Below are positions 6,591-38,847 of a stretch of DNA of 48,806 nucleotides, one piece after another; position 1 is the first letter of the stretch; each line of letters starts with the position of its first letter. Position numbers and translations under genes: made by a program. The notes beneath the pieces are model-generated. The model saw nothing but the letters and a program-made list of their open reading frames with translations, did not search any database and was not told the origin of the DNA. Origin of the DNA: Candidatus Heimdallarchaeota archaeon (lineage in GTDB: Archaea; Asgardarchaeota; Heimdallarchaeia; Heimdallarchaeales; Heimdallarchaeaceae); assembly GCA_030608385.1 (NCBI GenBank), contig JAUWEG010000003.1, positions 1 through 48,806 of the forward strand, written 5' to 3'.

Positions 6591-6747
6591 AAGTCACCAT
6601 TGTATCATTACCTTCATAAATTTTTTTGAACACCAGTATTTCAAAATAGATTAGACAATGTGGATCCATTTTTGCTGTTGATACTGCAATTTTTATAAAA
6701 TCCTAAACATACTTCTAACCAAATAATCCTCTGTAGGTGTTTAAAAA

Positions 6748-7820: not shown

Positions 7821-7827
7821 TATATAA
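7821..7827 (+). promoter_or_regulatory. archaeal TATA box for a leaderless SDR gene
   Basis: TATATAA lies 29 nt upstream of the ATG at 7850, and there is no SD in between. Confidence 0.4.
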
Positions 7828-7849
7828 CTGTCGGTGTGTAACTTAACTT

Positions 7850-8872: not shown

Positions 8873-8974
8873 TTTTTTTTTCCAATGATAAGATATATAT
8901 ATCACTATATGACATCTAAATCAAAACGCTTTGGTGAATATTTTACATTAACAAAGTACCTTAATGGTGATAAA

Positions 8975-15678: not shown

Positions 15679-16098
15679 TTACCGATTTTTGTTTTTAATC
15701 TGCCCTAGAGTGGAATAGATTGTGTCACCTATAATTGTTGATATTAGAGTGGTTTTTGTGTTACCTCTCATGCCAATAGTTTCAAAGAAACCTAAATCTC
15801 TGAGTTTAGTTATATTCCATTTAGCTGTTGAAAAGGAAATATCCAACTTTGTTGAGATTTTTTCTGCTAAACGGTTTAGAGATATTCTTTTTCTTTCTAT
15901 TTGAATATAACTTTCAAAGAAAATTCCTTTTTGTTTATCATTTAATTGATCAAACAAAATGATTAAACTCTGATGAAGTAAATCAAACAAAAATAAGTTA
16001 TCTTTTTCAAGCTTCCTTATCCTCTCTTGAGCAAAGGCGATCCCTTCTTCTGAGTAGTCTAAGCTTTCCAGTTCCGTTGGATTTAACAAAACGTTCAC
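15679..16098 (-). CDS. small winged-helix DNA-binding protein (putative regulator)
   Basis: The C-terminal half reads like an HTH/wHTH (LAEKISTKLDISFSTAKWNITKLRDLGFFETIG). It is divergent from the ATPase/coiled-coil operon. The start is GTG, so its position is uncertain. Confidence 0.45.
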   Translation of the reverse strand: MNVLLNPTELESLDYSEEGIAFAQERIRKLEKDNLFLFDLLHQSLIILFDQLNDKQKGIFFESYIQIERKRISLNRLAEKISTKLDISFSTAKWNITKLRDLGFFETIGMRGNTKTTLISTIIGDTIYSTLGQIKNKNR

Positions 16099-16260
16099 CT
16101 ATCATATTTGCACCTCAGCGTTTGAGTAATACAATATCTAGCATTTACACTTTTAATGTTTTCTACTTACAAGTAAGATATACTTTAAGAATGTATTTCA
16201 ACAGAGTTACTTTTGATAAAAAAATCTATAGTATTAGTGGAGATTATCAACATTCATAGA

Positions 16261-16268
16261 TTTTATAA
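16261..16268 (+). promoter_or_regulatory. archaeal TATA box of the ATPase/coiled-coil operon
   Basis: TTTTATAA lies about 50 nt upstream of the ATG at 16312. It is followed by the SD-like GTGAGGT at 16302..16308. Confidence 0.35.
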
Positions 16269-16311
16269 GATATGGTTAACATAACCAAAATGAAATATAA
16301 CGTGAGGTCAT

Positions 16312-18075
16312 ATGAGTACTCAAGATTCAAACCTTTTCCAACCTTGCAATCCTGACGATTTTTATGGGTTAAGAGACTTTATCAAAGACTTTAGTCAGAT
16401 TAAAGAAAACATGAAGAAAGAAGGAGAAAAAACTAATTCTATACTTCTAGTTGGTGATGAAGGAACAGGAAAAAGTTCTCTTTTAAGAAAATTATTTTCC
16501 TCTATATCTGTAAGGAAAGATATTTTCCATATGTTTGATTTAATACCTGAAGAAAAAGATTTGTTAGGGTTCTTCAAAGAATGGAAAAATATGATTGATG
16601 AGATATCTCCAGATTGGCGTTCAGTTCTTGAAAAAGTAGGAAAAAAGAAATTAGGTGATGATCTTCCTGCCCTCAAGGAGAACATCAAGAAACAAACTTC
16701 CCAGACTTATACTGAGATTTATGTCAATTTGTTTTTCGAGAATCTAGATAAAGTTAATCAAAAGCTACAGGAGACACAAACAACTTTGTATTTCTTTGTA
16801 GATAATATTCATTTATTCAAATTGATGGATATTCAAGAGTTTTACCCAATTTTCTCAACTATAATTAAGGAACTATCTATTCGAGGATACAACATTGTAG
16901 TTATCACAGCTCTAACAAAGCAATATCTTGTTGATTTTGACTATGAAAAGAATTTAACAGACAATTCAAAGATTTTTAGTATAGAACCTCTATCTGTTTC
17001 AGATACTGAGATTTATCTTCGACGAATTGCACCTCAACTTGTAAATAAAGGGATTCTAGAACTTGTTAATAATAGTCAAAGAACTTTCTTTGATCTAAAC
17101 TTAGGTAACTTTTTCATCAAATCTGGATTTGAAATCGATGATTTCGTTGAAAGAAATATTCCTAAGGTCTTTAGTCTTACAGACGAAGAGGAGTCTGTCT
17201 TATCAGAAATGGCCTCATTCAATGAAAATCTTTTCTTGATTGAACAATTAACTGCATATGTTCCACTTGAAGCTATCAAGTCACTTGAAGAAAAAGGATT
17301 TTTGTGGATTGGTTCAACATATGCTCGTTTAGTTCAAGAATCCTTATTAACAGCGATGAAGTTCCGAATGAGATTATTCAGTCCCATTACCTCACTGATG
17401 GTTACACTTGATTCAATTCTAGAGGATTTGAGCAAATACATTTCTCCATCAGATAAGATTATAGAAAAAGTTGGGAGCTTATCGGGTAAAATTAGAGACA
17501 GACTTGCTGATTTTGCAATAGCTTCAAAAATTCAAAAAATCGCTAATATATGTATCGAGAGAAAAATGTATCAAAAGGCATATGATTTAACATTAATCAA
17601 TACTCAACAATTTGAGCAAATTAATGAATTAGAGCAAGCAGGAGCATTCTGCGAAAAAATCGCAAGAGAATTCGAAGAAAAGAACTTCTATTTTGCAGCT
17701 AGACTTTACCTGAAATCTGCTTCTTATTACAAAGCAGTTGAAGAAGAACTTAAAGCAAATAGATCCTATGCAAGAGCTGCAGATCAATTTGAGAAACTAT
17801 CAGTAACACTGCCTGTGGAAAAAAGTGAATACGCTATACGCGGTTACTTGAAATCAAGCCTTGATTGTTATAAGAACATGGGGGACAAAACTAACTTCGA
17901 AAGAATTAGGAAAAAGGCAGTTGAGATGTTTGAAAAGGAAAGCATACATCACAATTATTTTACAAATATGATTTACGGGAGAGAAGAGGAATTACAGATT
18001 CCTTTAGAAGAACCTGAGCCAAAAGAAGTAGAAGAAATTTCTATTGAAAATATTGAAAAAGAATTGGATTTTTAG
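16312..18075 (+). CDS. STAND/ORC-like P-loop NTPase (archaeal ATPase type) with wHTH and C-terminal TPR/alpha-SNAP-like helical repeats
   Basis: It has Walker A LLVGDEGTGKSSLL and a Walker B-like LYFFVDNIHLF. The middle region is wHTH-like (LIEQLTAYVPLEAIKSLEEKGFLWIG). The C-terminus carries paired amphipathic helices (AGAFCEKIA, ARLYLKSASYYKA, YARAADQFEKL, LDCYKNMGD). TTTTATAA at 16261 and GTGAGGT lie ahead of the ATG. Confidence 0.7.
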   Translation: MSTQDSNLFQPCNPDDFYGLRDFIKDFSQIKENMKKEGEKTNSILLVGDEGTGKSSLLRKLFSSISVRKDIFHMFDLIPEEKDLLGFFKEWKNMIDEISPDWRSVLEKVGKKKLGDDLPALKENIKKQTSQTYTEIYVNLFFENLDKVNQKLQETQTTLYFFVDNIHLFKLMDIQEFYPIFSTIIKELSIRGYNIVVITALTKQYLVDFDYEKNLTDNSKIFSIEPLSVSDTEIYLRRIAPQLVNKGILELVNNSQRTFFDLNLGNFFIKSGFEIDDFVERNIPKVFSLTDEEESVLSEMASFNENLFLIEQLTAYVPLEAIKSLEEKGFLWIGSTYARLVQESLLTAMKFRMRLFSPITSLMVTLDSILEDLSKYISPSDKIIEKVGSLSGKIRDRLADFAIASKIQKIANICIERKMYQKAYDLTLINTQQFEQINELEQAGAFCEKIAREFEEKNFYFAARLYLKSASYYKAVEEELKANRSYARAADQFEKLSVTLPVEKSEYAIRGYLKSSLDCYKNMGDKTNFERIRKKAVEMFEKESIHHNYFTNMIYGREEELQIPLEEPEPKEVEEISIENIEKELDF

Positions 18076-18084
18076 GTGAGTAAG

Positions 18085-19533
18085 ATGTCAGAAAGAATAA
18101 CAAAAGATTTAGAAAAAGTGAAAAGAGAAATTGAAAATTTAGATGGAGAGATTGTAAATTTTAAAGAATCTCTAGAAAACTTGAAGGAATTACATCAATT
18201 TTATCAAATTCTAGCAACTTTAGTTCAAAACAAGTTTATTGGTTTGAATGAGAATTTACGCAATTTAATTGACACAAATAGACAGTCATTAGATGATATT
18301 ATTGAAGCAAATGTATCTGAAGATAAAAAACTAATTGATGAATGGACTAAAAGTCAATCAGAATCTGTAGTGTCGAAGCTAGACAATACAAAAAATGAAT
18401 TATCTAAATTACATGAATCTATTGCTTCTATTTTAGATGAAGGAAAAACCAACTTTGTGGAGTATTCTTCCTCATTTGGTGAAAAAATAAGAACCACTCT
18501 TACAAACCACGAACAAGATTTAGAACGATTAGCAAACAATCAAGTTAATGCTTTTAGAAAAGCAATTGATAGTGTAAAAGAAGATGTTAGTACTGTAAAG
18601 GAAAAAAATCTTTCAACCTTCAAGAACAATTCAGACGATATGAGAACAAAGATTGAATCTAACATTAATATTTCTCAAAACATCATGAAAGAATCCATAG
18701 AACATTTAAGATCAGAGTATGGTGATAAATTAACTGAAAACATGGAATCTGTCTTTGAAAGCTTTAATCGAATTAAAAGTGAATTAGGACAGCTTGTCAA
18801 TAACGCAGTTCAAAGAATTCAATCTGAATTATCTGATGTAACCGATTCAATGGATAAGTATCTTGTTGATGAAATTGCAAAAGTACAAGATGTTTTAGCA
18901 GAATACGAAACTGGAATGATTGATGTTAATGAAGTAGCTATGACAAATTTCAATTCATCTAAGGAATCTATGCTAGGATCTTATGATGATTTAACAAATA
19001 ATCAATATAATGAACATGATTCTGAACTTAAAGAATTTGAAGGGGATTTCAATAACAAAGTGGATGCAATTTTATCTACACTCTCTGAACAATCAGATTC
19101 AATTAAACAAGAAATAAAATCCTTTGTGTCAAGAGAACAGGACGATATTAAAAACCATTTAGATGATATTTTAACAACCGTTGTTGAAAAATCTGATAAT
19201 CTTCAAGGTAATGCTGCAAAAACAGCAGCAGAAAGAATATCTATTCTTGAAAATGAAATTACCGATGCAAAAGATTCCTTAGAAAGAACAAGTCTACAAA
19301 TTACCTCAAGATTAGATTCAGCTCAAAAAGATACTATAGCTGAAATTTCAACCATGTCCTCGAATGCAAAAAGCAAGATTGTTGAAACACAAGATTCCAC
19401 TGTAGCTAATCTTGAAATTGAAGCAAAGGACAATATCAAAAAAGCAGAACAAGTAGAAAAGTTGAGAAAAGATCTCATAAGTCGATTAGAAAGACTAGAA
19501 AGGAATCTTGAAACAATAAAAGATCAATTATAA
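18085..19533 (+). CDS. all-alpha coiled-coil protein (482 aa), unknown function
   Basis: The ORF is uninterrupted and its composition is E/K/D/S/N/L/I-rich and helix-forming, with no Cys and almost no Pro or Gly. AGGTGA overlaps the upstream stop and lies 5 nt before the ATG at 18085. Confidence 0.65.
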   Translation: MSERITKDLEKVKREIENLDGEIVNFKESLENLKELHQFYQILATLVQNKFIGLNENLRNLIDTNRQSLDDIIEANVSEDKKLIDEWTKSQSESVVSKLDNTKNELSKLHESIASILDEGKTNFVEYSSSFGEKIRTTLTNHEQDLERLANNQVNAFRKAIDSVKEDVSTVKEKNLSTFKNNSDDMRTKIESNINISQNIMKESIEHLRSEYGDKLTENMESVFESFNRIKSELGQLVNNAVQRIQSELSDVTDSMDKYLVDEIAKVQDVLAEYETGMIDVNEVAMTNFNSSKESMLGSYDDLTNNQYNEHDSELKEFEGDFNNKVDAILSTLSEQSDSIKQEIKSFVSREQDDIKNHLDDILTTVVEKSDNLQGNAAKTAAERISILENEITDAKDSLERTSLQITSRLDSAQKDTIAEISTMSSNAKSKIVETQDSTVANLEIEAKDNIKKAEQVEKLRKDLISRLERLERNLETIKDQL

Positions 19534-19547
19534 AAGAAGTGATTAAA

Positions 19548-22500
19548 ATGGAAGGAACATTAGAAAAGATTGGTTTATCGAAAGATGAAGTTCAAGTTTA
19601 TTCAATAATTGTTCAATTTGGTTATAGAACCATAGGTCAAATCCAAACATATTACAAACAACCCTCAAATGTCATCCAAAATGCTTTAAACAGTTTAGCT
19701 GGCAAAGGATACATTAGAGAAATCAAAGCTAAAAACCAAGAGGGGACCTCATATTTTATTCCACTCCCCCCACAAATTAAGCTTACAGAGGATGTATCTA
19801 TTCGTTTAGAAACTGAATTAAAGTCATTAAGTGATGATGTAAAAGAAGATTGGAATAAAACAATGAATAATTTTAGATTACAATTATCCGCATTTCATGC
19901 AAAAATTACAGAAAATGTTGATGATCATGCTTCTGAAATCGCATCAACTGCTACTAAATTTTTAGATTCATTAACAAACATAGTTTCATCAGGAAAAACT
20001 GAAACAGCAGAAGTGATTGAAAGGCTAAAGTCAGAAACTTCCAATATTTCTGCAACAAACAGTGATGCTATTGCAAAAACTGCTCAAAGAGTAAAAGAGA
20101 ATGTTCTTAGTTCTTTTGATTCTACTATTCACAAAATAGGCGAACATCATGATTCATTCAAAGTAAAAATAGAGGAAAGACTAGGTTTTCTGCAAAAAGA
20201 GCATGATGATAGAACTCAAATACAACTTGATGCCCTTCTTGAAAAAGTCGAAAGGATAAAAGAAAGCTTATCAGTTCAGCTTCAGGAATTTATAGAAGAA
20301 GCAGGAGAACGAAAAAGTGTAATTATAACTGTTACAGATGAAGCTGTTAAGAAAATCTCAGCAGATTCAAGCGTAGTTGCAAGAGATTCTTCTAAGAAGC
20401 TTTCTGATACAGTAAACAAAATTATCGCAAACTATGAGAAAAAGCTTGACGAATATCAAGTAAAAGTACAGCAGATTATAATTTCATTAAATGATGAATT
20501 GAAAAAACTTGAAGACGCAACAACAAACAGAATAAGAACCTCAATTGATAGATCAAAAGAAACAGCAGTAAATATTTTGAGAGGGAATGAGAATCAGTTT
20601 GTTGATTTAATGAATAAAACTAAAGTTGATTCTGTTGAAAAGCTGGGAGATTTAATTACACAAACTGAAGCAAAAACAGAAGAAATGAAAGTTAAATTGA
20701 GTAATGATTTAGCCTCATATCTCAAAGAATTCAAAAAGAATAGCGATAATCTACTATCTTTACTTAATTCAGGAATAGAAATAGGTTTCAATCTGTTTGA
20801 AGAGAATCTGTCTTCTTCAATTGAAAACGTAAGTAACCAAATCAAACTGTTTGTAGAAGACATAATGTCTGCATTTAGAGAATCAACTAACGCGTATTTA
20901 GATAAATTGTCAAAAACAACCACTAAATATGAAAAGGCTTTGAAGGAGAGGAAAGAAAAGTTTGCCACCACACATGAGGAATTTAAAGAAAACTTCACTT
21001 CTCATATCAATGAATTAAAATCCACTGTTATTTCTAATATTGAGAAAAACATTAAGGATAACAATGAAACAATTCAAAATCTAATAACTGAAAAAGAAAA
21101 CAAATTCAAATCTGATGTTGAAGTTTTTTCAGATGAGTTCTCTAAAAGAGGAAGAGATGTTAGAGATGAAGTACCTAATGTTGTTCAGATTAACTACCAA
21201 GCTAGCCTAGAAAGATTACAAGAATTAGATGATCAGCTTAAATCATCAATTGCAAAAATTGAAGTGATTAACCAAGCATTTCAAGGATTAGAGGAGAAAC
21301 AGCTTCAAAAAGTATTTGGAAAAGAAGAGGGACCACGAATGGCTCAACTAATCGGAAGTATGAATAGAGATATTGAGCTAGTAAAGGAGAATGTTGGAAA
21401 TAAAATGGAGGAAATGATTCAAACATTGACAAATTCAATGAATTCTTTGTCCAATGAAATATTTGAAAAGATGAATTTAAGATTAGAAGATTTAGCAAGA
21501 TTCACAACAGATACCCTTCAAAAAACCAGCCAATCATTTGAAATTTCAAGAAGTGAAATTAGTAGCCAATTTACAGCATCTTCAGATGATATGAAAAGAA
21601 CTATTGAAGAAACCTATACAACTTATGAAGAGCAATTTAATGAACTACAAGGAACAAGCACTAAATCATTAGCCGATGTAATAGGAGCTGAATCTAAAGC
21701 ATTTTCTGATGTAACTAAATCCATAAGTGGTTCATTGGATGAACTTCTCCAAGCTCCAGATTCAACTGAAGATAATGAAGGTCAAACAGAAATTCATCTG
21801 ACAATTCAAGACGGTCTAGAAGCTCTGCTAACAACAAAACAAGAAATTCTTGATGTAATGAAGAAAAATAATATCGAGGTAACAACTAATCTTCAAGAAT
21901 TACTTAAGTCAAACATTGACGACCATTCCAAATTAGTAACCAAAGCTACTTCCTCAATGGATGTAACAATGAAATCTTTGCAAAGTGAATTCAAATCTGC
22001 AAAAGAGGCTCTTGATACTGACATTTCTGTCACTCTAGATGAGGCTGCTACAAATTATAGCGCTCAAACAGCAAAGGTTGAAACCGAGATTAATGATTTA
22101 ATTGAGCAAGAAGTTCAACAGTTTATTGAAGGTACTGAAGGTGTATTAGCGGAATTAAATGTTTCCCCTGAGAAATCATCATTGTTAGATGAAGCACTTG
22201 CAAATACTAAGGGAGAGCTTCAAAAGCTTGGTGCAAATTATCCAAAATGGGTTAAAACTGACTCTGATGCATTTGCAACTAAATTGGACTCTTCCATAAA
22301 AGAATTTCAAATAGGTGCACAGACAGAAATTGATACAATGTTTACTAGCGTTCAAAGAGGTCTTGAGAAATCCTATGAACGCTTGGCAACTGACTTTGTT
22401 AATAATGTCACAGAAATTCAAAATGAATTTGAAAAAGAAAAGAATGATTATGAATTAAACATGTCTCATCAAGTTAATAGCTTTATTACTAATTCAGATT

Positions 22501-23321
22501 CAAATTCATCTGCCTTGGTAACTAATATTCAAGGAACAAAAGATGCTCTTATAGAGGCTATAACTTCTGGAGATGATGCAGTCAATGCAGACCTTAGTAA
22601 TCTAGAAAAAACTTTAACCGACCTATTTGATTCAAATTTGACCGCTCTAACAGAAAAATTGAATGCAGCTCAAGAGGATTCAATGATTGTAGATACTGAG
22701 AAAGATGATTACAGCTCTAAACTTATGAGTTTTAAAGAGAATATAATCAAAGGAACTCAACAAGAAATTGAAAATATAGACACTAGTATTTCTGGGACAC
22801 TAAGTTCAATTCCAGATAAAATCGGTGGCGCTTTAGATGCAACAGGGGAATCAATGAAATTAATTAAGAGTGTTTTATCGCTGGGGTCAGGGATTGAACC
22901 AAATCCAATTGAAGATATATGGATAGTAACAGGTAACGAACAAGTTAATGGAACTATGATGTCTCTCTTGAGAAATACAAAGTCTTCTGCTACAATAATT
23001 TGCCCAAGATTAAATTGGATAGATTCTGAATTCCTTGAAACTTTTGCTAGAAAACTAGAAATTGTAACAAATACAACAGCTCATACAGACGAAGATAAAG
23101 CTATCTTAAGTAAAATGCTTGGGATGGGGAATGTAGTTGTAAAGGATGATACAAACCTAACAGTAATGATGGCAACCAGAGATGGTATAGAAGAAGGTTT
23201 CTTAGGGCACAAAGCTCCAAGTGGAGATCCACTTCTAATTGTAACCTTTAATGAAGAAATTGTTGGGGAAATAACTAAAATTTACTACGATTTCAGAAGT
23301 AGGGCCCCTATAAGACAATAA
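19548..23321 (+). CDS. giant TrmB-family protein: N-terminal TrmB wHTH, about 1000-aa coiled-coil rod, TrmB-like C-terminal domain
   Basis: The N-terminus LEKIGLSKDEVQVYSIIVQFGYRTIGQIQ...VIQNALNSLAGKGYIREI matches the TrmB HTH consensus. The C-terminus IWIVTGNEQVNGTMMSLLRNTKSSATIICPRLNWID...VVVKDD resembles the TrmB C-terminal regulator domain. The interior is helical and low in Pro/Gly. The ATG at 19548 is preceded by GTGAT. Confidence 0.7.
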   Translation: MEGTLEKIGLSKDEVQVYSIIVQFGYRTIGQIQTYYKQPSNVIQNALNSLAGKGYIREIKAKNQEGTSYFIPLPPQIKLTEDVSIRLETELKSLSDDVKEDWNKTMNNFRLQLSAFHAKITENVDDHASEIASTATKFLDSLTNIVSSGKTETAEVIERLKSETSNISATNSDAIAKTAQRVKENVLSSFDSTIHKIGEHHDSFKVKIEERLGFLQKEHDDRTQIQLDALLEKVERIKESLSVQLQEFIEEAGERKSVIITVTDEAVKKISADSSVVARDSSKKLSDTVNKIIANYEKKLDEYQVKVQQIIISLNDELKKLEDATTNRIRTSIDRSKETAVNILRGNENQFVDLMNKTKVDSVEKLGDLITQTEAKTEEMKVKLSNDLASYLKEFKKNSDNLLSLLNSGIEIGFNLFEENLSSSIENVSNQIKLFVEDIMSAFRESTNAYLDKLSKTTTKYEKALKERKEKFATTHEEFKENFTSHINELKSTVISNIEKNIKDNNETIQNLITEKENKFKSDVEVFSDEFSKRGRDVRDEVPNVVQINYQASLERLQELDDQLKSSIAKIEVINQAFQGLEEKQLQKVFGKEEGPRMAQLIGSMNRDIELVKENVGNKMEEMIQTLTNSMNSLSNEIFEKMNLRLEDLARFTTDTLQKTSQSFEISRSEISSQFTASSDDMKRTIEETYTTYEEQFNELQGTSTKSLADVIGAESKAFSDVTKSISGSLDELLQAPDSTEDNEGQTEIHLTIQDGLEALLTTKQEILDVMKKNNIEVTTNLQELLKSNIDDHSKLVTKATSSMDVTMKSLQSEFKSAKEALDTDISVTLDEAATNYSAQTAKVETEINDLIEQEVQQFIEGTEGVLAELNVSPEKSSLLDEALANTKGELQKLGANYPKWVKTDSDAFATKLDSSIKEFQIGAQTEIDTMFTSVQRGLEKSYERLATDFVNNVTEIQNEFEKEKNDYELNMSHQVNSFITNSDSNSSALVTNIQGTKDALIEAITSGDDAVNADLSNLEKTLTDLFDSNLTALTEKLNAAQEDSMIVDTEKDDYSSKLMSFKENIIKGTQQEIENIDTSISGTLSSIPDKIGGALDATGESMKLIKSVLSLGSGIEPNPIEDIWIVTGNEQVNGTMMSLLRNTKSSATIICPRLNWIDSEFLETFARKLEIVTNTTAHTDEDKAILSKMLGMGNVVVKDDTNLTVMMATRDGIEEGFLGHKAPSGDPLLIVTFNEEIVGEITKIYYDFRSRAPIRQ

Positions 23322-23345
23322 TCTCCCTTTTTCTCCCTTTTTATT
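23322..23345 (+). terminator. oligo-T terminator, duplicated TCCCTTTTT unit
   Basis: TCTCCCTTTTTCTCCCTTTTTATTT begins immediately after the TAA at 23319..23321. Archaeal RNAP terminates at oligo-T tracts. Confidence 0.4.
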
Positions 23346-23426
23346 TCACTTGATTCATATCGCGTAGGTATTATGTAAGATTTTTATTTATCATTGGCAG
23401 ATGTCTATATCAAGGCGTAGATTCTA

Positions 23427-23792
23427 ATGTGGATAATGCAACCCTGTCCAATGCATAGAGAGATTGAATATACTACTTATTGTATTCTTGAAGATGAGCT
23501 TGAAATGATTTTATTAGTCTCTTTTTATGATCCAGATGATCTTCTTACTGCAGATTTGGAAGAGTTTGCTAACCCTACATTTTGTTTAAACGCTGTGGTT
23601 TTGGACGATGAAAATGTAATTTATTGTCCAACTAAAAAGAAAAGAATAGAGCTCAGAGGTAGATCAATACCTCAAAAAGTCTATGAAAACACAAGAGAAA
23701 CTCTACTGTTCATGGATCCTGATGCTAAAGAATGCTCAGATTGTTTATACAAAGCCTTAGTTGCTTTGATAAAAAGTCTAGAAGAGATGTAG
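23427..23792 (+). CDS. hypothetical small acidic Cys-containing protein
   Basis: Support comes only from the ORF and from its non-overlapping fit between neighbouring genes. No motif is recognised. Confidence 0.35.
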   Translation: MWIMQPCPMHREIEYTTYCILEDELEMILLVSFYDPDDLLTADLEEFANPTFCLNAVVLDDENVIYCPTKKKRIELRGRSIPQKVYENTRETLLFMDPDAKECSDCLYKALVALIKSLEEM

Positions 23793-29972: not shown

Positions 29973-32900
29973 TTACTCCTTTGTTTCCCCTTCTTCCACT
30001 GTCTCTGAAACAGCTTCATTATTTTCTTTTGAATCAATCTCCGATCTAAGGATTTTTCTTACTTTTTCAGTTTCTAGATAACTGTCTGAAATTTTTTGAG
30101 TAATCACTTCTATTTTCTTAGCTTCCTCGATTATAATTGTTGAATGTAAGGTTTCAGAAAGTTCAGCATAACCTATTACTCCCATTAGAGGATTTCTAAT
30201 TCTATCTACCAGTTCAGCGAAATCCTCAATATTTTGAGCAATTTGGTCATAAGCTTGCCTTCGTAGCTCCCTATCACGTTTTCTATCAGTGATATCTCTT
30301 GCTGTTACTAACATTGTTAATTCTTCTTTTAGAGTAAAGGGTGTTGCAGTGATTTCAACTGGGAAAGTTGTTCCATCTTTTCGAATAAATTCTCGTTCAA
30401 ATCTAATGATATATTTTTCCATCATTTCAGCGAAATAATCCATTATCTCTTCCTCCGTTAAATCCTTAACAAGGTCTACAAGACTCAAACCAATTAGTTC
30501 CTCTCTTTTATATTTGGTCATTACTAATGCTGGATCATTTGCTTCTACAATATTACCGATAGAACCATCTCGTGGTATACTCAGAATTGCAATAATATCA
30601 TTTGCTTCATGGAAAAGCTTACGATATCTTTCCTCACTTTCCATTAATTCTCGCTCTGCATTTTTTCGCTCAGTGATATCTCTAGATACCGATAGAACAA
30701 CCATTTCACCTCTTAACTCAAAAACATGAGAACTAATTTCAGTAGGAATTCTTTTTCTATCTTTAGATATTAAGGTATTTTCAAAAGTTGTTATTCCTTC
30801 CTTTATAATTTGATGAATATTTTCAGAAAGTACATCTCTGTCTTCAGGAGCTGTAATTTCAGAGGATTTCATTTTCAAAAGTTCAGCTCTTTCATATCCC
30901 AATAGTGTGCAAGCTACGTCATTAACCTCTATGAATGTACTAGTACTATTTCTTTCTTCATCGACATTTGTCAAGAAAATAGCATCATTTGTATTATTGA
31001 AAATTTGTCTATATTGTTCTTCTCTCTCTATAAGTTCTTCTTCAGCTTTTTTGCGGTCAGTTATATCCCTGACAATTCCCTGAACAACCTCTATTCCTCC
31101 TATTTCAAACCTACTAGAAGATACATCTGCTGGGAAGACTGAACCGTCTTTTCTTCGGAATCTGGTTTCAAAATTAACAGAACCTTTTTCCTCTATTGTA
31201 TCAAATGCTTTCTTAGATGTTTCCTGCTCAGTAATTGGGTGCAATTGCATTATGGTTAATTGAAGAAATTCTGATTTTGAATAACCGAAGAGCTCTTTAA
31301 CCCGTAGATTGACATCCAAAATATTTCCTCTTAAATCATGTAGGAATATTCCATCATTTGATTGATCAAAAGTTTGTCTGAATTTTTCTTCACTTTCTTT
31401 TAGTGCTGATTCAGCTTTCATTCTTTCCTCAATATCTCCAATAACAGCCATTATTTCAGAAGGATTTCCTTCCTCATCTGTAGTTAGAGAAGCACTTAGT
31501 TCTATTGGAAATTTGCTTCCATCTCTCTTTAGTGACATAAATTGAGTATTTTGTAATCGTCCTTCAGTTAAAACTAGTTTTAGTTGACTATTTGCAAATT
31601 CTAGATTCTCTCTAGCAATAAAATCAACAGTTGTCAAACCAATCATATCTTTTATATCATCATATTCATACATATTTGCAGTCTGTTGATTGGCAAAAGA
31701 AACTCGTCCATCTAGATCAATCAGAATAATAGCGTCAGGAGAGGTTTCAATAAGTGTTCTATATCTTTCTTCACTCTTCCTAATAGAAAGTTCAGCTATC
31801 TTTTGTTCGGTTATATCTCTAGCTACAGAAAGCAATACTTGTTGATCTCTCAGTGTAAAGAGATGGGAGCTTAATTCCACTGGTCGCAATTCACCTTTTT
31901 TATTTTCTATTTGCGTTTCAAAAGTTTTTGTTCCTGCTGCGAATAGATCTGCTGTAATTTCCAACGAAAATTGAAGATTACTAAAATTACTATTTGCATC
32001 AATTGAATGTTTGAGAAGTTCTTCTCGAGAGTATCCCAACCACTGACAAGCTGTTTCATTCACTTCTAACATGTCCCCAATTTCGTCATATTCATTTATT
32101 TTGTGAATGAAAATTGCATCTTTTGCATTTTGGAATATTTGTCTAAATTTTTGTTCACTTTCTTTAAGAGCTTCTTCTGCTTTTTTCCTTTCAGTAATGT
32201 CGATTTCAACACCTATAAAACCAAAAACGCTTCCTTCTTTATCTTTTATAGCTGCTGCATGAAACACCCCTGGGATGGTTGTTTCGTCTTTTCTTAAAAT
32301 TGAAACTTCAATATCATGAATGAATCCATCTTCTATGGTTCTTCTTTGAACATCTTGAGCTGTAAAAGTATCCTCATAGGCAATTAGTTCATTAGTATTC
32401 TTTCCAAGTAATTGATCTTCGTTCTCATAACCATGAAGAATAGCTGCTCTTTTATTGACAAATGTCACTCTACCAGATGAATCTGAACGTATAATTGCTG
32501 CGGGAATTGTTTCAACTAATTTTCTGTATTTTTCCTCACTTTCCATTAAGTCTCTTTGGGCTTTTTTCCTTTCAGTAATATCCCTTGCTATTGAAAGTAT
32601 TACTTTTTGAGATTGTAATTCGAAGATGTGTGAATTAATTTCAACTGGTATCCGTTTTCTATCCTTAGAAAATAGAATAGTCTCAAAAGTCAAATGACCT
32701 GTATCCACAATCTTCTTTGTATACTCAGAATTGTAATCTATCTCTTCAGGAGCTGTAATATCACTAGAAAACTTATTAAGCAATTCTTCTTTAGAAAAAC
32801 CTAACCATCGTAATGCTACATTATTTGCTTCAATAAATTTACTTGAAGAACCATTTTCTCTTAGGTAAGTTAAGAAGATAGCATCACTTGAATTATGGAA

Positions 32901-34433
32901 TATCTGTCTAAACCTTTCTTCACTACTAGTAATCTCCGCCTCTGCTTTTCTTCTCTCTCTTAAATCTCTAGCTGTTGTTAAAACAACTTTTTCATTGTTC
33001 ATTAAGAAGATATTTGAGTTATATTCAACTGGAATCTTACTACCGTCTTTGTGAATTATGTACCCTTCGAATGTAACTCTACTTTTTTCTAATAGATTTT
33101 TACCGATTTCTGATTGTCCAACAGTTTCTTCTGGGGTATGTAAATCAACTGGTGTCATTTGAAGAAGTTCTTCTCTTGAAAATCCAGTCCATTCACATGC
33201 TATATAATTTACTTCTATAAACTTCCCCATCACGTTATCAGCTGTTAAGGGTGACATGAAAATAGCTTCATCTACATTCTGGACTATTTGTCTGAACTTT
33301 TCTTCACTTTCTATCAATTCATCTTGTTCTTCTTTCCTTTCGGTGATATCTCTTACAACAGCTAAACTAACTAAGTCATCACCAAGAGTGAATAAGTGAG
33401 AATTAATTTCCACAATTATCACCCTTCCATCTTTAGTTTTATGCATTCTCTCAAAAGTAAGTTCTTTTTTCTCCATTAACTCCTGTACAAATTCTAAACT
33501 TTCCTTTTCTCCTGTAACAATGAAGTCAGATGGTTTCATCTTCATGAATTCTTCTCTAGTGTAACCATACATGGCAGCTGCTACACTGTTAGTTTCAATG
33601 ATCTCTTCAAATGTTCCATCATCTCCTCTTCTACTGACGAAGATACCATCATTTGTATTATGAAAAATCTGTTTAAATCTTTCTTCACTTTCTTGAAGTT
33701 CTTTGGATGTTTGTTTACTTTCTGTAATATCACTAGCTAATTCTGCTACTCCAATTAAATTCCCGTCATCTCCATAAACAGGGTATCCTCGAACAAACCA
33801 GGTTTTATGATCTGGAGTTATTACTTCTGCAATATGCTCTTGTCCTGAATCTCTTGCTTTAATGACAGGGCAATTGTCACATGGTTGGTCTCTTTGATAC
33901 CATAGTTCATAACATGTTTCTCCAACAATATCCTCCGGAGATTGACCCAATAGATCACTTGCAATTTTATTAGACCAAATTATTTTCATGTCTGTATCAT
34001 AGAAAATTATATGTTCAGTCAGAAAATCTAAGAATTTTGATTTTTTGAACTCAGAAGCCATAACTTTGGTTTCTTTTTGTTTATCCCCTGTTATGTCATT
34101 AGTAATAATAAAAAGTTTGTTTAATTTTTCTCCCTCTATAATAGGATAAAAGCGATTACGTATGAACTTTCTAGTTCCATCCTTTGTTGCAATCCAAAAT
34201 TCGATTTCTTTTGGGTAAGTATTCATTTTATCATTTTCAGATTTAATTAATTTCAATCTGTTTTTCTCTTCTGTTGCAGCAAGAAAAATAAAGTTTTTTC
34301 CTTGTATCTCTTTTAATGAATATCCTGTTATTTGTAACAAATAATCGTTTGCAAATTCGATTTTTCTATTTTTTACTATAGTTACTCCTACATCGATTTT
34401 ATCGAATATCTCCCCTAAGTCTTCTTCTGCCAT
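29973..34433 (-). CDS. multi-PAS sensor protein (11 PAS domains) ending in a His-less DHp-like segment, no HATPase domain
   Basis: Eleven PAS modules are delimited by a repeated linker, DITERKKAE..L.ESEE+FRQIF. The C-terminus is AELVDRIRNPLMGVIGYAEL. The ORF-track start at 34481 is TTG; the ATG at 34433 (MAEEDLGEIF) is preceded by GTGA. Confidence 0.85.
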   Translation of the reverse strand: MAEEDLGEIFDKIDVGVTIVKNRKIEFANDYLLQITGYSLKEIQGKNFIFLAATEEKNRLKLIKSENDKMNTYPKEIEFWIATKDGTRKFIRNRFYPIIEGEKLNKLFIITNDITGDKQKETKVMASEFKKSKFLDFLTEHIIFYDTDMKIIWSNKIASDLLGQSPEDIVGETCYELWYQRDQPCDNCPVIKARDSGQEHIAEVITPDHKTWFVRGYPVYGDDGNLIGVAELASDITESKQTSKELQESEERFKQIFHNTNDGIFVSRRGDDGTFEEIIETNSVAAAMYGYTREEFMKMKPSDFIVTGEKESLEFVQELMEKKELTFERMHKTKDGRVIIVEINSHLFTLGDDLVSLAVVRDITERKEEQDELIESEEKFRQIVQNVDEAIFMSPLTADNVMGKFIEVNYIACEWTGFSREELLQMTPVDLHTPEETVGQSEIGKNLLEKSRVTFEGYIIHKDGSKIPVEYNSNIFLMNNEKVVLTTARDLRERRKAEAEITSSEERFRQIFHNSSDAIFLTYLRENGSSSKFIEANNVALRWLGFSKEELLNKFSSDITAPEEIDYNSEYTKKIVDTGHLTFETILFSKDRKRIPVEINSHIFELQSQKVILSIARDITERKKAQRDLMESEEKYRKLVETIPAAIIRSDSSGRVTFVNKRAAILHGYENEDQLLGKNTNELIAYEDTFTAQDVQRRTIEDGFIHDIEVSILRKDETTIPGVFHAAAIKDKEGSVFGFIGVEIDITERKKAEEALKESEQKFRQIFQNAKDAIFIHKINEYDEIGDMLEVNETACQWLGYSREELLKHSIDANSNFSNLQFSLEITADLFAAGTKTFETQIENKKGELRPVELSSHLFTLRDQQVLLSVARDITEQKIAELSIRKSEERYRTLIETSPDAIILIDLDGRVSFANQQTANMYEYDDIKDMIGLTTVDFIARENLEFANSQLKLVLTEGRLQNTQFMSLKRDGSKFPIELSASLTTDEEGNPSEIMAVIGDIEERMKAESALKESEEKFRQTFDQSNDGIFLHDLRGNILDVNLRVKELFGYSKSEFLQLTIMQLHPITEQETSKKAFDTIEEKGSVNFETRFRRKDGSVFPADVSSSRFEIGGIEVVQGIVRDITDRKKAEEELIEREEQYRQIFNNTNDAIFLTNVDEERNSTSTFIEVNDVACTLLGYERAELLKMKSSEITAPEDRDVLSENIHQIIKEGITTFENTLISKDRKRIPTEISSHVFELRGEMVVLSVSRDITERKNAERELMESEERYRKLFHEANDIIAILSIPRDGSIGNIVEANDPALVMTKYKREELIGLSLVDLVKDLTEEEIMDYFAEMMEKYIIRFEREFIRKDGTTFPVEITATPFTLKEELTMLVTARDITDRKRDRELRRQAYDQIAQNIEDFAELVDRIRNPLMGVIGYAELSETLHSTIIIEEAKKIEVITQKISDSYLETEKVRKILRSEIDSKENNEAVSETVEEGETKE

Positions 34434-34569
34434 CTGATTCACTCGAATAGATTTTTTACCCCAGATTGAGAACCAAGCCAATATTATGGTTGCTCTCTTG
34501 ATATATTTATTAAAATAATTTTAATAAGATTGTGATGGTTCTAGTCAAAATTTTAACGAGAAAAATCCA

Positions 34570-35694
34570 CTAAAATACTCTCTTGTTGTCTCCAGTAAAA
34601 GTGTAGAGGGATTCAGAGTGTAGAAGAACCGATAGTTTCTGACTTATTGTGAATTTCTTCTTAGTTTTGGTGACAAAGAATAAGTTTTCTCCTTTATAAT
34701 TCAGAGTTAAAACTTGTTGATCAAGTATTTTTTCTGAATCAGTAATAGAACATTCCAGTACTATTTGATTTTCATCAACAGTTTTGTTTGGATCTAGTTC
34801 TCTGATTGACTCTGCTCTAAATCCTATTTCACCTTCTGTGATATTTTCTTTTAGAATTCTTTTTTGAAGATTTTTAGGAAGTAAAATCTGTTTGTCAATA
34901 ACTAATGAGACTGAATTTTTTGAGGACTTGAATTTGAGAAAATTCATTGGGAAGTTGCCAATAAATTGTGCTACAAACTTCTGATTAGGTTCATCATAAA
35001 GATCTTCAGGAGGGCCCATTTGAGCAATTTCTCCATCTTGTAATAAAATGATAGTATCTCCGAGGCTGAGAGCTTCAGATTGATCATGTGTCACATAAAC
35101 CATTGTTGTCTTCAGAATTCCATGAAGTTTTCGAATCCATGTTCTCATCTCATATCTTAATCTTGCATCAATATTGCTTAGTGGTTCATCAAAGAGAAAA
35201 ATTACTGGCTTTCTAATTACTTCTCTACCTATAGCTACTCTTTGCTGTTCCCCCCCACTTAGTTGAGAAGGATACTTGTTTCTATGTTCCTCCAATTTAA
35301 ACAACTTTAGTGTTTCATCCACTTTATCTTGTACGTCTGATGATGAGAAAGTTCTTCTTTTAAACAAATTTCCTTCTTTTTGACTCTCCAATGGAAAACG
35401 CAAATTTTCTTCTACAGTCATATGTGGAAAAAGAGGATAGTTTTGAAAAACCATTGCTATGTTTCTTTTATTTGCAGGTATGTTTGTTATGTTTTTTTCA
35501 TTAAAAAATATTTGACCTTCTGAAGGATATAATAATCCTGCTAGAATTCTCAATAATGTGGTTTTTCCACTTCCTGAAGGTCCGAGGATAACAGTGAAAC
35601 TTCCTTCAGGAATTGTGATATTAATATCATTGAGAGCTGTTTTTTTGCCATATTTTTTTGTTAGATTTTTTATTTCAACTTTCATTTCATACAT
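34570..35694 (-). CDS. ABC importer ATP-binding subunit, MalK/UgpC type
   Basis: It has Walker A GPSGSGKTT, Q-loop, signature LSGGEQQRV, Walker B IFLFDEPLS, H-loop VTHDQ and a C-terminal regulatory (TOBE-like) domain. It overlaps or abuts the permease gene stop. Confidence 0.92.
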   Translation of the reverse strand: MYEMKVEIKNLTKKYGKKTALNDINITIPEGSFTVILGPSGSGKTTLLRILAGLLYPSEGQIFFNEKNITNIPANKRNIAMVFQNYPLFPHMTVEENLRFPLESQKEGNLFKRRTFSSSDVQDKVDETLKLFKLEEHRNKYPSQLSGGEQQRVAIGREVIRKPVIFLFDEPLSNIDARLRYEMRTWIRKLHGILKTTMVYVTHDQSEALSLGDTIILLQDGEIAQMGPPEDLYDEPNQKFVAQFIGNFPMNFLKFKSSKNSVSLVIDKQILLPKNLQKRILKENITEGEIGFRAESIRELDPNKTVDENQIVLECSITDSEKILDQQVLTLNYKGENLFFVTKTKKKFTISQKLSVLLHSESLYTFTGDNKRVF

Positions 35695-38600
35695 CTCTTA
35701 TATTTACTGAATTATCAATTCCTTTAAGCAGATAATTTCTTAGAAATACGAAAACCAAAAGCAAAGGAATTGTTACTAATATTGATGCAGCCGCAAATAA
35801 TCCCCATTCAGGAGAACTAGATTCAATAGACCCCAGAAAAGTGTATAGTTTGATGGGGAGAGTGTATTTTCCTGGTGACTGTAATAATACAAATGCCATC
35901 AGAAAACCATTCCATGTACTCAAGAAATTTAACAAGAATGTAATAGCTATCGCTGGTCCTGATAGTGGTAAAATGATTTTTCGAAGTACTCTAAATCGCG
36001 AATTTCCCATAACCATAGCAGATTCATCTAATTCCTTCGGAATTGAATCAATATACCCTTTTATTATCCATAATGCTAGTGGTATGGTGTGCGTGCTAAA
36101 GGCTAAAATTGCACCAATGTATGTGTCTATTAATCCTAAATTAAACATGATAAGATAAAATGGTATTAGTGTAAGGATGCCTGTGAACATTTTTAAAGCA
36201 AAAACACCAACCATCATCTCCTTCTTAGCTTTAATTGTGTATCTTGAAAATCCATAAGCTGCTAAAGCTGTTAAAATGACGCAAATACTTGCTGATCCTA
36301 ATGCAATGAGTAGCGAATTAGCAAAGTTCAAGTGAATACTTTCTTGAGTAAATAATCTTCTAAAATTATCTAAAGTAGGATTCTCCGGGAAAAACGAGGT
36401 TGGTACAGAACTATTGCCCCTCGAGAAAGCTATCCATATTATGTTCCAAAATGGAATAAGTGCCACAGCTGTAACTAGGAATAGGAAGAAAATGCTGTTT
36501 TTTGGTTTGGTTGCAATTTCATACGTTTTTGATAGGAGCTTGTTCTGTTTGAAATTAAACTGTGTGTGAATTCTAAGATAATTTAGAATAAACGTGAATG
36601 ATAATAAACTGATAGTTGTAACCCAACCTACTAGATTCCAACTTATAATTATTCCCGTCCAAAGTATTGGCTGCAATAGTATAGATAGTTTCACAAAGAA
36701 GTCTGAGACAAAACTAGCTAGTAAATAAATACCCAATAGTGCTAGAATAGTCCAAGGAAGCCAATTAGTCAATTTCAGCAGGATATTGGCCGTTAAGATA
36801 GTAGTAAACTGAATTAACAGTATGCCGTGAATTGAATTCAAATTAACTATTCTAGAATCAAGCTTTTGAAGAAAAATCCTAACACTTCTTTTTATTTGTT
36901 TGAACCAGATTATTATTTTTTCTCTTGGTTTGAATTCTACTTCTTCTGAATCATTTTTTCTTATATTTGAAACTATAAAAAACTCTAGAACAATAATGAA
37001 GATATTCCAATTCAAAGCATACCACATCTGATAGAAAAAGAATTGTGATAATGAAAGGGTTATATCTGCAATAAGCAACACTTTGAACCATTTGATTGAA
37101 ATGTTCTTTTTTGAAAGTATCAAAATTGCTGATATTAGATAGAAACCCGCAAGGACATAACTTAGTGCATCATTCCAATAAATACCAAAATATCTGAATC
37201 CCGTTAAACTTGAAGCTAAATACCCTGCTGATTGGAATAGGAAAAGAATGGGTAAAACATATTTATTGGTTGAAGTTTTTTTCTGACTAGATGGTATGTA
37301 AGAACTTTTTGTACCCTTTGACATCTTCACCCATATCAAAACAAAAAACAATGTCAGAAGACTCATGATTGTAGAGTATGCAGCTGCTATTCCAATCTCT
37401 CTTTGTTGATAGAACATATAAAATGTAAACGTGCTAAAGAGATCCGTGGCGCCTATGATTCCAGCTTCGTTTGACCCGTATGATAGAAGTGGATATCCGT
37501 TTGTTAGTAAAAATGCTACATTAAAGCTACCAAAAGTTTTGATAATTTCCAATATTATTGCTGGGAGAATAATAGGTTTGATTAAAGGGATTACGATTTT
37601 TCTTATTTTAGTTCTTTCCCGAATCTGATCAATATCCGCCATATCATTTAATTCTCTGGGAATACTGCTCAAACCTGCTAGAAATAATGTTGTTATCAGG
37701 GGAATTGAATCCCAAACCTCTACAAAGCATGCTATGAATAAAGCTACATAAGGTTGTGTCAAAAGATTCACATTCGTTCCAAATAGTGCATTAAAAAAGG
37801 ATATACTACCTGTACCGTGGAAGAATGTTCTCCAAGATAAGATTTTGATGTATGATGGGATTGCCCAAGGTAGATATAAGAACAAGTACCATAATTTCTT
37901 CCTTTTTACCTTATATTGAATAATATATGCTAAGATAAAACCTAGAACTATTTTTACAAAAATAATTAAGGTACTCCAAACTAAAGTAGTTGTGAAAGCT
38001 ATTGGAAGTTGAGGATTTTCAGTAATATGAGCATAATTACTGAATCCGGTAAAAACAGGTTGTTCTCCTCTTACAAGGTTGTAAGAGGTAAAAGATAGAA
38101 ATATGCCATATAAAATTGGATAAACTTCCAATAAAACGAGAGCCAATAAAGCTGGGAAGATGAATATATATGCAGTTTTATTGAACGGAACATCCCTCCT
38201 TGCAAAAAAGATGAAGATTGCAACAAATAAAATGACAATAACTAGTAGTGATAGAGAAGTAGCCAACTTTGAGTAGTGTAATTGATCCTCCTGACTTTGG
38301 AGAGTCTCAATTTGTTCTGATTCCCAATGAAGTTCTTCACTCACTTGTTGAATGATTTGCATTTCTGCATAATCTACGAAAGTTGCATTAACGAGATATA
38401 TTGAGAATTGGTATAATTGCGATGGTAAAAGTCCTGTAATTCTTGCATGAATCGCATCTGATTCATTACTAACAATGTAGACTGTGAAGTTAAAAGTAAT
38501 CCTCTTTTGTGCAAGAAAATTTGAGTCAGATATAGTATAATTCACTGGAGAGAAATAGTTTTCTTCTCTTTCTACACTTTGATTAAGAAAAATAAAAGAC

Positions 38601-38842: not shown

Positions 38843-38847
38843 TAAGC

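Follow-up and report, generated by a model that had tools for sequence, protein, structure and literature searches.

A TrmBL2-like giant protein of Asgard archaea with a long hendecad coiled coil, most likely folded back on itself

Introduction

The closest described relative of the protein presented here is TrmBL2, a chromatin protein of the Thermococcales with 264 aa (PDB 5BOX, 5BPD, 5BPI and 5BQT), which lacks the sugar-binding subdomain (PMC4158304) and which, by coating DNA, produces stiff filaments and also stalls SMC (PMC4158304, PMC11840125). It belongs to the same superfamily as TrmB and TrmBL1 (PF01978 plus PF11495; PDB 3QPH and 2F5T). In TrmB, Tyr50 and Asp51 of the recognition helix are conserved and contact DNA (PMC4158304). 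Here we analyse a gene at positions 19548..23321 (+) of a 48,806-nucleotide stretch of DNA from a Candidatus Heimdallarchaeota archaeon (contig JAUWEG010000003.1; the whole stretch is called the window below). Its product, referred to as the giant, has 1257 aa: a TrmB-type winged helix-turn-helix (wHTH) at one end, a small α/β domain at the other, and a very long helical rod in between. A preliminary description, made from the sequence alone, had proposed a TrmB regulator split by a linear coiled coil. We read the giant instead as an architectural DNA-binding protein with a TrmBL2-like head and antiparallel hendecad arms, and put the probability of this whole reading at about 0.5.

Terminal domains

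The open reading frame (ORF) of the giant is intact on the + strand and runs to 23321 from either a GTG at 19539 (1260 aa) or an ATG at 19548 (1257 aa). All close homologues use a start of the latter kind, beginning MEGTLEK or MESTLEK, and ATG 19548 is for this reason taken as the start. Inside the gene there is an antisense ORF of 134 aa (20594..20998, -), which is very likely spurious; it is rich in S, L, F and N, as expected from an E/K/S-rich gene read backwards.

The N-terminus was proposed to be a TrmB wHTH, and this proves correct: PF01978 matches residues 5-72 (19560..19763, +) with 34.6 bits, against a curated Pfam gathering cut-off of 25.6 (E 1.8e-8). Using phmmer, residues 4-96 align to residues 10-104 of P. 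furiosus TrmB 3QPH (E 0.002). Tyr50 and Asp51 are replaced in the giant by Ile43 and Gln44 (NRVYDTISSL in 3QPH, SNVIQNALNSL in the giant). The same alignment shows that the rod starts exactly where the TrmB dimerisation helix α5 starts (LTEDVSIRLETEL in the giant, ELEDIMKKLEIEL in TrmB), and that the helix of the giant then runs on for about 500 residues. The end modules are parted, as had been suggested, by about 1040 aa of coiled coil in place of a short dimerisation helix. Among the relatives identified through their C-terminal domain, nearly all proteins with a true N-terminus open with a TrmB-like HTH.

The C-terminal α/β domain (residues 1124-1257; 22917..23318, +) has a PLD-like fold and was harder to place. 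The last 173 aa of the giant have no match in Pfam or NCBIfam, and this includes PF11495, the TrmB C-terminal profile that the preliminary description had expected there. A profile built from Heimdall C-domains only had no match among PDB sequences, and a broader C-domain profile placed TrmB 3QPH and 2F5T in its top four, but with E values of 0.26-0.42. Because these direct profile scans fell short, structural and profile-profile comparisons were needed. An AlphaFold2 (AF2) model of residues 1099-1257, built on an alignment of 40 sequences (A4), has a mean predicted local distance difference test score (pLDDT) of 92.2 and a predicted template modelling score (pTM) of 0.78. Its best PDB matches by Foldseek are the TrmBL2 crystals (E 2e-8 to 5e-7, TM-score 0.63-0.70), followed by P. 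furiosus TrmB 3QPH (5e-7) and the T. litoralis TrmB sugar-binding-domain structure 2F5T (2e-6, 19% identity, only 146 of its 233 residues aligned). PLD-fold enzymes rank after the TrmB structures, the fold being common to nucleases such as Zucchini. Profile-profile alignment by hhalign of A4 with P0166, a bona fide PF01978 plus PF11495 protein, gives 95.8% probability (E 7e-9, 124 columns), with the match in P0166 beginning right behind its HTH and helix. Several relatives match positions 3-138 of the 233 positions of PF11495, just below the cut-off (21.9 against 22.2 bits). The near-invariant residues of the family C-domain (the Lys in RTKS, a Pro, and RDxEE) align with AK...P and TDGKE of TrmB, and the HKD catalytic motif of PLD enzymes (HxK...D) is absent from the domain. 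The second effector subdomain, the sugar-binding β-barrel, is also absent, the giant ending about 135 aa past the rod. On the modelled structure, the C-terminal module comprises just one subdomain of the TrmB effector domain, the first and PLD-like one; the TrmB assignment originally made for this end holds as homology, and for this subdomain alone.

Without a sugar-binding subdomain or a PF11495 match, the giant resembles the chromatin protein TrmBL2 and not effector-sensing TrmB. The same observations bear on the simplest alternative, which is that the giant is an effector-responsive TrmB transcription regulator in which the long linear coiled coil serves simply as a spacer between the end domains or as a means of dimerising them. 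Such a regulator would have the wHTH above the Pfam cut-off, the homologous C-domain and the rod starting at the dimerisation helix, all of which are found. It would not be expected to lack the sugar-binding subdomain, to cover only positions 3-138 of PF11495, or to have lost the conserved Tyr and Asp of the recognition helix. We consider it improbable, and return to it below.

Within the close Heimdall homologues (P0009, P0010, P0013, P0015 and P0027; overall identity about 64-69%, as measured for the first four), a subset has a markedly different C-domain, over residues ~1135-1257 of the giant. P0010, for instance, has small indels at 1164, 1174 and 1190 and is 44% identical in the C-domain, compared with 68% overall. 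The pattern suggests that in this subset the C-domain alone may have been replaced, or is diverging faster.

The hendecad coiled coil

The interior of the giant is rich in E, S, L, K and T and, as noted previously, poor in proline and free of cysteine. Only 5 of the 16 prolines lie in residues 79-1088, and the rod is Cys-free because the sole Cys, at 1152, lies outside it in the C-terminal domain. AF2 predicts helix throughout residues 79-1111, with breaks at 191-222, 312-316, 579-593, 734-747, 870-873 and 978-990. Of four breaks originally proposed, those at KEEGPRM, QAPDSTEDNEGQ and NVSPEK coincide with AF2 breaks, whereas the one at GANYPKW is not predicted, and the segments 191-222 and 978-990 had been missed.

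The interior is a hendecad coiled coil (11/3) with the classical core formed by positions a, d, e and h, and not a heptad one. The hydrophobic periodicity has a sharp peak at 3.67-3.68 residues, corresponding to 11/3, and none at 3.5, and the hendecad phase is constant from residue ~56 to ~600. The N-terminal arm (N-arm; residues 79-578; 19782..21281, +) contains about 45 consecutive hendecads in a single register, with hydrophobic occupancies over 45 successive 11-mers of 0.70 at a, 0.54 at d, 0.42 at e and 0.73 at h, and at most 0.2 elsewhere. This is a property of the whole family, the 11-residue power being far above the 7-residue power in all 51 non-redundant relatives. The C-terminal arm (C-arm; residues 594-1111; 21327..22880, +) is made of hendecad helices at 594-733, 748-869, 874-977 and 991-1111, separated by short breaks.

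Three places in the rod stand out by their conservation. The first is a non-helical segment of the N-arm, residues 191-222 (DSTIHKIGEHH...; 20118..20213, +), a loop in the AF2 model; the residues F190, G198, H201, F204, K205 and E210, in or near it, are invariant. It has a non-helical counterpart in the C-arm, NSDSNSSALVTN (residues 978-990; 22479..22517, +). The third is a basic and proline-containing motif, RDVRDEVPNVVQINYQ (residues 536-551; 21153..21200, +), about 50 residues ahead of the central turn; distant subfamilies also carry an R-D-x-V-P motif, equally far ahead of their turns.

The hydrophobic stripe of the rod is narrow (a, d/e and h; ~22% of residues), and the rod carries a net charge of -72. 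No transmembrane segments are found in the giant (maximum 19-residue Kyte-Doolittle hydropathy 0.76). The narrow hendecad stripe on an acidic helix accounts for a series of sub-threshold matches: to Pfam Apolipoprotein A1/A4/E (72.5 bits against a cut-off of 90), to ApoLp-III, weakly to ATP-synt_B, and to the ZorA-tail models of NCBIfam and PADLOC; ApoA-IV is matched in the PDB.

These matches raise the question of whether the giant is an 11-mer repeat protein of the apolipoprotein, perilipin or synuclein kind, lying on a membrane or lipid droplet and tying DNA to it through the wHTH. The 11-residue periodicity would suit such a protein, and there is a precedent in MLDS of Rhodococcus, which reportedly links lipid droplets to DNA. 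However, the matches stay below the Pfam cut-offs, the stripe is narrow and the rod acidic, without the interfacial Lys/Arg belt of class-A lipid-binding helices, and there are no transmembrane segments; moreover, the mirrored indels described in the next section imply that the helices pair with each other. The giant is very unlikely to be a lipid-surface protein.

Mirror relation of the two halves

The two halves of the rod vary together, and they do so as mirror images. This is seen most directly in the indels that separate homologues. Members of the ~1470-aa class differ from the 1257-aa class of the giant by 106 aa inserted after residue 440 and 104-108 aa inserted after residues 729-745, giving a centre at 588, and one insertion is never found alone. 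The Borrarchaeum (1532 aa) and Sifarchaeum (1392 aa) proteins, which are 76% identical, differ by 33 aa at 309, 40 aa at 539, 33 aa at 909 and 33 aa at 1122; these form two nested mirror pairs with centres at 732 and 742, against a rod midpoint of ~736 (position-only p ~0.003). Two Helarchaeota proteins have indels of 38 aa at 239 and 30 aa at 788 (centre 530, midpoint ~530). In four further pairs, the length differences in the N-half and C-half are 334/315, 214/203, 401/411 and 172/139, and in Thorarchaeota they fall at the rod midpoint itself.

The two insertions of ~106 aa also suggested bundles of spectrin-like 106-aa repeats. This was rejected: Foldseek finds no spectrin or plakin matches, an AF2 helix of 262 residues spans one of the insertion sites, and the hendecad periodicity is present throughout.

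Conservation is mirrored as well. Smoothed column conservation at residue i was correlated with that at 2c-i, using each of 801 centres c between 400 and 800. The global maximum is at c = 592.5 (r 0.60-0.68 over ~498 pairs), against a background of mean 0 and standard deviation 0.25-0.29. The most conserved clusters of the interior, residues 181-227 and 961-995, are mirror images of each other about this point, and hold the non-helical segments 191-222 and 978-990. A third indication is a proline at the midpoint, P596 in the giant. In 51 non-redundant family members, where the limits of the HTH and the C-domain define the rod midpoint, a proline is near it far more often than expected by chance: the random-placement rank is below 0.2 in 53% of them, and a Kolmogorov-Smirnov comparison with the uniform distribution gives p 9e-8. 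The symmetric positions of the helix breaks were set aside as insufficient by themselves to prove a hairpin, because a roughly regular spacing of ~125 aa would mimic such symmetry.

The apex identified in these ways (21282..21326, +) comprises residues 579-593, running into GKEEGPRM (591-597), and is at the exact midpoint of the rod. An AF2 model of residues 58-1257 also has a central break at 579-593, and its highest confidence within the rod is around this break. When the whole chain is compared by Foldseek, the head matches TrmBL2 (the best match, E 1e-7) and PLD structures, and all the remaining matches are to antiparallel arms: MukB (1417 aligned columns, E 1e-4), condensin Smc2/4, Smc5/6, the cohesin elbow, JetC, Rad50 and PrgA.

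Four lines of evidence, namely the size-matched mirrored indels, the mirrored conservation, the family-wide midpoint proline and the Foldseek arm matches, indicate that residue i would pair with residue ~1185-i, with the turn at GKEEGPRM. The rod is then most likely an intramolecular hairpin with ~510 residues per strand, which at 0.148 nm per residue gives an arm of ~75 nm, and not the linear rod of more than 100 nm that the preliminary description envisaged. Intramolecular pairing would bring the wHTH and the C-domain side by side, as they are in TrmB and TrmBL2. The mirrored indels, mirrored conservation and midpoint proline also speak against the simple parallel rod of a TrmB-type regulator.

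Family and distribution

The giant is not a one-off, but by sequence belongs to what appears to be a large, undescribed family found across the Asgard archaea. Searching 1.84 billion representative proteins with the C-domain profile A2 identified 105 proteins at E <= 1e-3, and in nearly all of them the domain is at the extreme C-terminus. Lengths range over 350-1827 aa in the family as a whole and 350-1812 aa among the A2 relatives with a true N-terminus. The end domains are separated by ~135 to ~1,600 aa, so that homologues with intermediate linkers, by which the split-regulator proposal was to be checked, do exist. Members with taxonomic names come from Heimdall-, Prometh(Loki)-, Hel-, Frey- and Thorarchaeota. 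A search for homologues with A4 returned mostly fragments. The GTDB species genomes were also scanned with one conserved C-domain motif, giving 59 loci with genes for 762-1807 aa. These carry the Asgard labels Hel, Loki, Hermod, Hod, Heimdall, Thor, Wukong, Borr and Sif, with one Bathyarchaeia label and several loci labelled only 'uncultured archaeon'. Two pattern scans of viral contigs found no relatives. In databases the proteins are named 'helix-turn-helix domain-containing protein' or 'hypothetical', and our literature searches found no description of this architecture, of the family, or of the three-gene unit described below.

Different rod lengths coexist within lineages. The Hodarchaeota metagenome-assembled genome (MAG) DZ1B.339 has two paralogues of 968 and 808 aa (L012 and L031), and Heimdallarchaeota as a group carry a 762-aa type together with the 1257/1470-aa types. 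At the short extreme is P0117 (350 aa), found on a single 4.8-kb Logan contig, which is a natural 'rod-less' version: it is ~40% identical at both ends to the Helarchaeota protein P0088 (1732 aa), but has only ~135 aa between the HTH and the C-domain. At locus L014, from a Hermodarchaeota MAG, the family gene is split into an ORF of 1596 aa (5102-9892) and a separate C-domain ORF of 170 aa (9971-10483), which could reflect a frameshift, a pseudogene or an assembly error.

The three-gene unit and its neighbourhood

The giant is encoded by the last gene of a tight unit of three. Gene 1 (16312..18075, +) encodes a STAND-like P-loop NTPase of 587 aa. Pfam AAA_16 matches its residues 37-175 (35.7 bits, cut-off 32.6), it has a Walker A motif (GDEGTGKSS) and a Walker-B-like motif (FFVDNIH), and its C-terminal half is helical and TPR/SNAP-like. 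Gene 2 (18076..19533, +) abuts gene 1, whose stop codon ends at 18075, and encodes a helical hendecad-repeat protein of 482-485 aa with a likely start at ATG 18085. This protein is free of proline, and its 11/3 register does not change between residues ~34 and ~430. Upstream of gene 1 (16255..16311, +) a TATA-like element, TTTTATAA, lies ~45 nt before the ATG of the ATPase, and a Shine-Dalgarno-like GTGAGGT 5 nt before it; from the sequence, these are a possible promoter and ribosome-binding site of the operon. Just behind the stop codon of the giant there are oligo-T tracts (TTTTT C TCCC TTTTT A TTT; 23328..23346, +), a likely archaeal transcription stop for the unit.

The order ATPase, hendecad protein, giant is conserved in relatives from Heimdallarchaeaceae down to 34% identity. 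It is also found in Borrarchaeum and Sifarchaeum, where full-length identity of the ATPase is 25% (E 1e-35) and the intervening hendecad protein has 769 aa, and in a divergent 1479-aa class from marine sediment, where the middle protein has 437 aa and the stop and start codons overlap. Counterparts of gene 2, with 437-770 aa, occupy the same position at L001-L003, L042-46/L061 and L063-64. Orthologues of the ATPase lie upstream of family members in Heimdallarchaeaceae, Borrarchaeum and Sifarchaeum, Helarchaeota and the P0034 class; in Helarchaeota the ATPase, which matches SNAP/TPR, is directly upstream with no middle gene. Overall, the ATPase precedes the family gene in four subfamilies, usually with a second hendecad protein between them. 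A homologue search with the ATPase returned only Heimdallarchaeaceae; the distant orthologues came from a hidden Markov model search of fetched loci. With its ATPase and second rod protein, the operon does not resemble a TrmB regulon, which is a further point against the regulator alternative.

The combination of a STAND-type ATPase (AAA_16 plus TPR) with long coiled coils could also be that of a defence or conflict system, in which a STAND NTPase sensor would act with long coiled coils, as in ZorA tails or Lamassu/SMC-like effectors, and with a PLD-fold effector. The PADLOC ZorA-tail models match both rod proteins (E down to 6.5e-16), with weaker LmuB matches, and the C-domain shares its fold with nucleases such as Zucchini. 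However, the ZorA matches are confined to the coiled-coil tail, with no MotA-like membrane part, and PADLOC finds no known defence system at the locus beyond this similarity. The C-domain has no catalytic HxK...D motif, its conserved residues being those of TrmB. The locus has conserved housekeeping synteny (DnaK/DnaJ, DUF61, M24 peptidases, GAPDH) and the family is vertically distributed across the Asgard classes, without copies in the viral contigs scanned. A defence function thus seems as remote as the lipid-surface one.

The 762-765-aa paralogue of Heimdallarchaeota has other neighbours. At L048, and also at L052, L055, L056 and L060, it is preceded by a protein of ~177 aa without a family match (L048, 7429-7956) and by a protein of 1157 aa with a PD-(D/E)XK nuclease and an SF1 helicase (AAA_11/AAA_12; L048, 3937-7407). 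From the gene order, this paralogue appears to have another set of conserved partners, enzymes that process DNA.

Two small ORFs flank the operon in the window and keep their positions in L001 and L002. One (23427..23792, +; 121 aa) has no family match; the other (15679..16098, -; 139 aa) is divergent from the ATPase gene and has a weak HTH_24 match. The window has a G+C content of 33% and a gene set typical of an Asgard archaeon, including the housekeeping genes DnaK, DnaJ, DUF61, two M24 peptidases, GAPDH, phosphatidylserine synthase and decarboxylase, and an archaeal actin-like protein. The last of these (ALP_N plus MreB-like_C) adjoins a CDP-alcohol phosphatidyltransferase and a phosphatidylserine decarboxylase (949-2010, +, and 2023-3486, -). 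Further along the window are an ORF of 1502 aa (29973..34481, -), to which multi-PAS proteins correspond by synteny in L001 and L002, and a 1054-aa protein (35687..38851, -) in which an fn3-containing N-terminal region is fused to an ABC permease domain (BPD_transp_1). A gene for an MttB-family methyltransferase (48116..48806, -) runs off the end of the window, and the available part has no in-frame amber (pyrrolysine) codon. A tRNA scan of the window found none.

Proposed structure and function

The structural part of our reading, which we hold to be probably correct, is as follows. The head would consist of the wHTH and one PLD-like C-domain, and would be TrmBL2-like. The single dimerisation helix of TrmB would have been expanded into two arms of ~510 residues each, with a turn at ~579-597. 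The chain would fold back on itself to form the ~75 nm arm, with the two end domains at its base, in the manner of SMC, Rad50 and MukB but without their ATPase heads.

Several observations weigh against this reading. The peak of the conservation mirror has a z-score of only ~2.4, because the background oscillates. The AF2 confidence in the rod is low (pLDDT 50-73, overall 60; pTM 0.31), and monomer structure prediction is biased towards folding back. The indels between L015 and P0068 (31% identical) are unbalanced; we treat this as a probable result of unreliable alignment of repetitive helices, yet it is a counter-example on record. The case for DNA binding comes from homology only, and the recognition Tyr and Asp of TrmB are not kept. 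The three-gene unit is not universal, since in the Thor, Hermod, Loki 848-aa and Heimdall 762-aa subfamilies the ATPase and partner are not nearby and the neighbours are unrelated. Finally, the mirror co-variation would be equally well explained by an intermolecular antiparallel dimer, that is, a rod of ~150 nm with a head at each end.

This last arrangement needs to be considered in its own right. In it, the giant would form an extended antiparallel homodimer with a DNA-binding head at both ends, or a polymer resembling Scy/FilP or intermediate filaments, and would bridge distant DNA segments or anchor DNA to a scaffold. Four-helix assemblies, too, use a hendecad core of the a/d/e/h kind, and the unit encodes a second hendecad protein. 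TrmB itself is described as dimerising by a domain swap around its coiled-coil helix (PMC4158304), which likewise counts in favour. On the other side, the conserved Gly/Pro break at the midpoint throughout the family and the central turn in the AF2 model favour a hairpin, and the 350-aa relative keeps both ends with the rod nearly deleted, as predicted if a hairpin had been inserted. We therefore judge the extended dimer or filament to be unlikely, though less so than the regulator.

The function of the proposed hairpin protein is a more tentative matter. We suggest that it is architectural, the odds lying somewhat against us, and that it bridges, tethers or spaces DNA. The head would bind DNA with little sequence specificity, as TrmBL2 does, and the arm would project a conserved tip, carrying the R-D-x-V-P motif, ~75 nm away from it. 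The tip and the 'joint' formed by 191-222 and 978-990 may be where another copy, the 485-aa helical protein or the ATPase docks, and the STAND-like ATPase could control or gate the assembly. As a bridge, tether or roadblock, the protein would then hold DNA or keep it spaced over a long, constant distance, as opposed to regulating genes under the control of a ligand.

A wider proposal, which we regard as doubtful but worth stating, is that the three-gene unit is an unrecognised, Asgard-specific machine for organising or tethering the chromosome. In such a machine, the TrmBL2-like head would hold on to DNA, an arm of 75-120 nm, its length tuned in each lineage by paired expansions, would set the distance to the partner of the tip, which might be another DNA segment, a cytoskeletal element or the membrane, and the STAND NTPase would switch the assembly. 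The organisation of chromatin and nucleoid in Asgard archaea bears on the origin of the eukaryotic nucleus and of chromosome handling, and to our knowledge few DNA-architectural proteins are known from them beyond histones. Here the scaffold of an archaeal chromatin protein (TrmB/TrmBL2) appears to have acquired antiparallel coiled coils like the arms of SMC. The length of the rod varies more than ten-fold between lineages through paired expansion of both arms, which is expected of a spacer or tether under selection for length. The family is widespread across the Asgard classes, often with several paralogues per genome, and partly linked to the ATPase. Its members are cloneable targets in cultured Asgard strains, and provide a clear case in nature of hendecad coiled coils of great length, useful to coiled-coil structural biology.

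Comparison with known systems

Exchangeable apolipoproteins (ApoA-I, ApoA-IV, ApoE and ApoLp-III) share with the giant amphipathic repeats of 11/22 residues, as reflected in the sub-threshold Pfam and PDB matches. The giant differs from them in scoring below the cut-offs, in its narrow hydrophobic face and acidic character, in its DNA-binding head, in being archaeal and in having no secretion signal. The tail of ZorA, from the Zorya anti-phage system, is likewise a very long helical structure of similar composition, and its PADLOC and NCBIfam models match the rod regions; however, the giant has no MotA/ExbB membrane domain and no ZorB, ZorC or ZorD partners, and its genomic context is different.

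Scy and FilP of Streptomyces and the b-subunit stalk of ATP synthase have repeats based on 11 residues and form nearly straight coiled coils. They resemble the giant as long hendecad rods, as does the weak ATP-synt_B match, but they are parallel dimers or filament formers, without a DNA-binding head and without mirror symmetry of their halves.

The arms of SMC, MukB, Rad50 and JetC are closer in layout. In these, an antiparallel coiled coil formed from the N- and C-terminal halves unites the terminal modules, as we propose for the giant, where the likeness holds equally for intramolecular and intermolecular pairing. They also have in-register discontinuities ('joints' or 'elbows'), their arm lengths co-vary between homologues, and they are matched by the whole chain in Foldseek. 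The giant, however, has no ABC ATPase head, its termini being a wHTH and a PLD-like domain, with no Walker motifs and no SMC_N match in Pfam or NCBIfam. It also has no hinge or zinc hook, the apex being a turn of ~15 residues with a short helix and the rod being free of Cys. Its repeat is a hendecad, its ~510 aa per strand are more than in typical SMC arms, and no sequence homology to SMC arms was detected.

With TrmB and TrmBL1 the giant shares the wHTH, the start of the rod at α5 and the first effector subdomain; it differs in lacking the β-barrel sugar-binding subdomain and the Tyr50/Asp51 pair, and in having no significant PF11495 match. TrmBL2 remains as the best structural match, both for the whole model (E 1e-7) and for the C-domain (E 2e-8, TM-score up to 0.70). 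It differs in having one short connecting helix where the giant carries a hendecad insertion of ~1,040 aa, the identity is only 10-14%, and the giant is restricted to Asgard archaea and encoded together with an ATPase and a second rod protein. Nevertheless, the two agree in having a wHTH, a helix and a single PLD-like C-domain with no sugar-binding subdomain, and the most fitting place for the giant is among the TrmBL2-like members of the TrmB superfamily.

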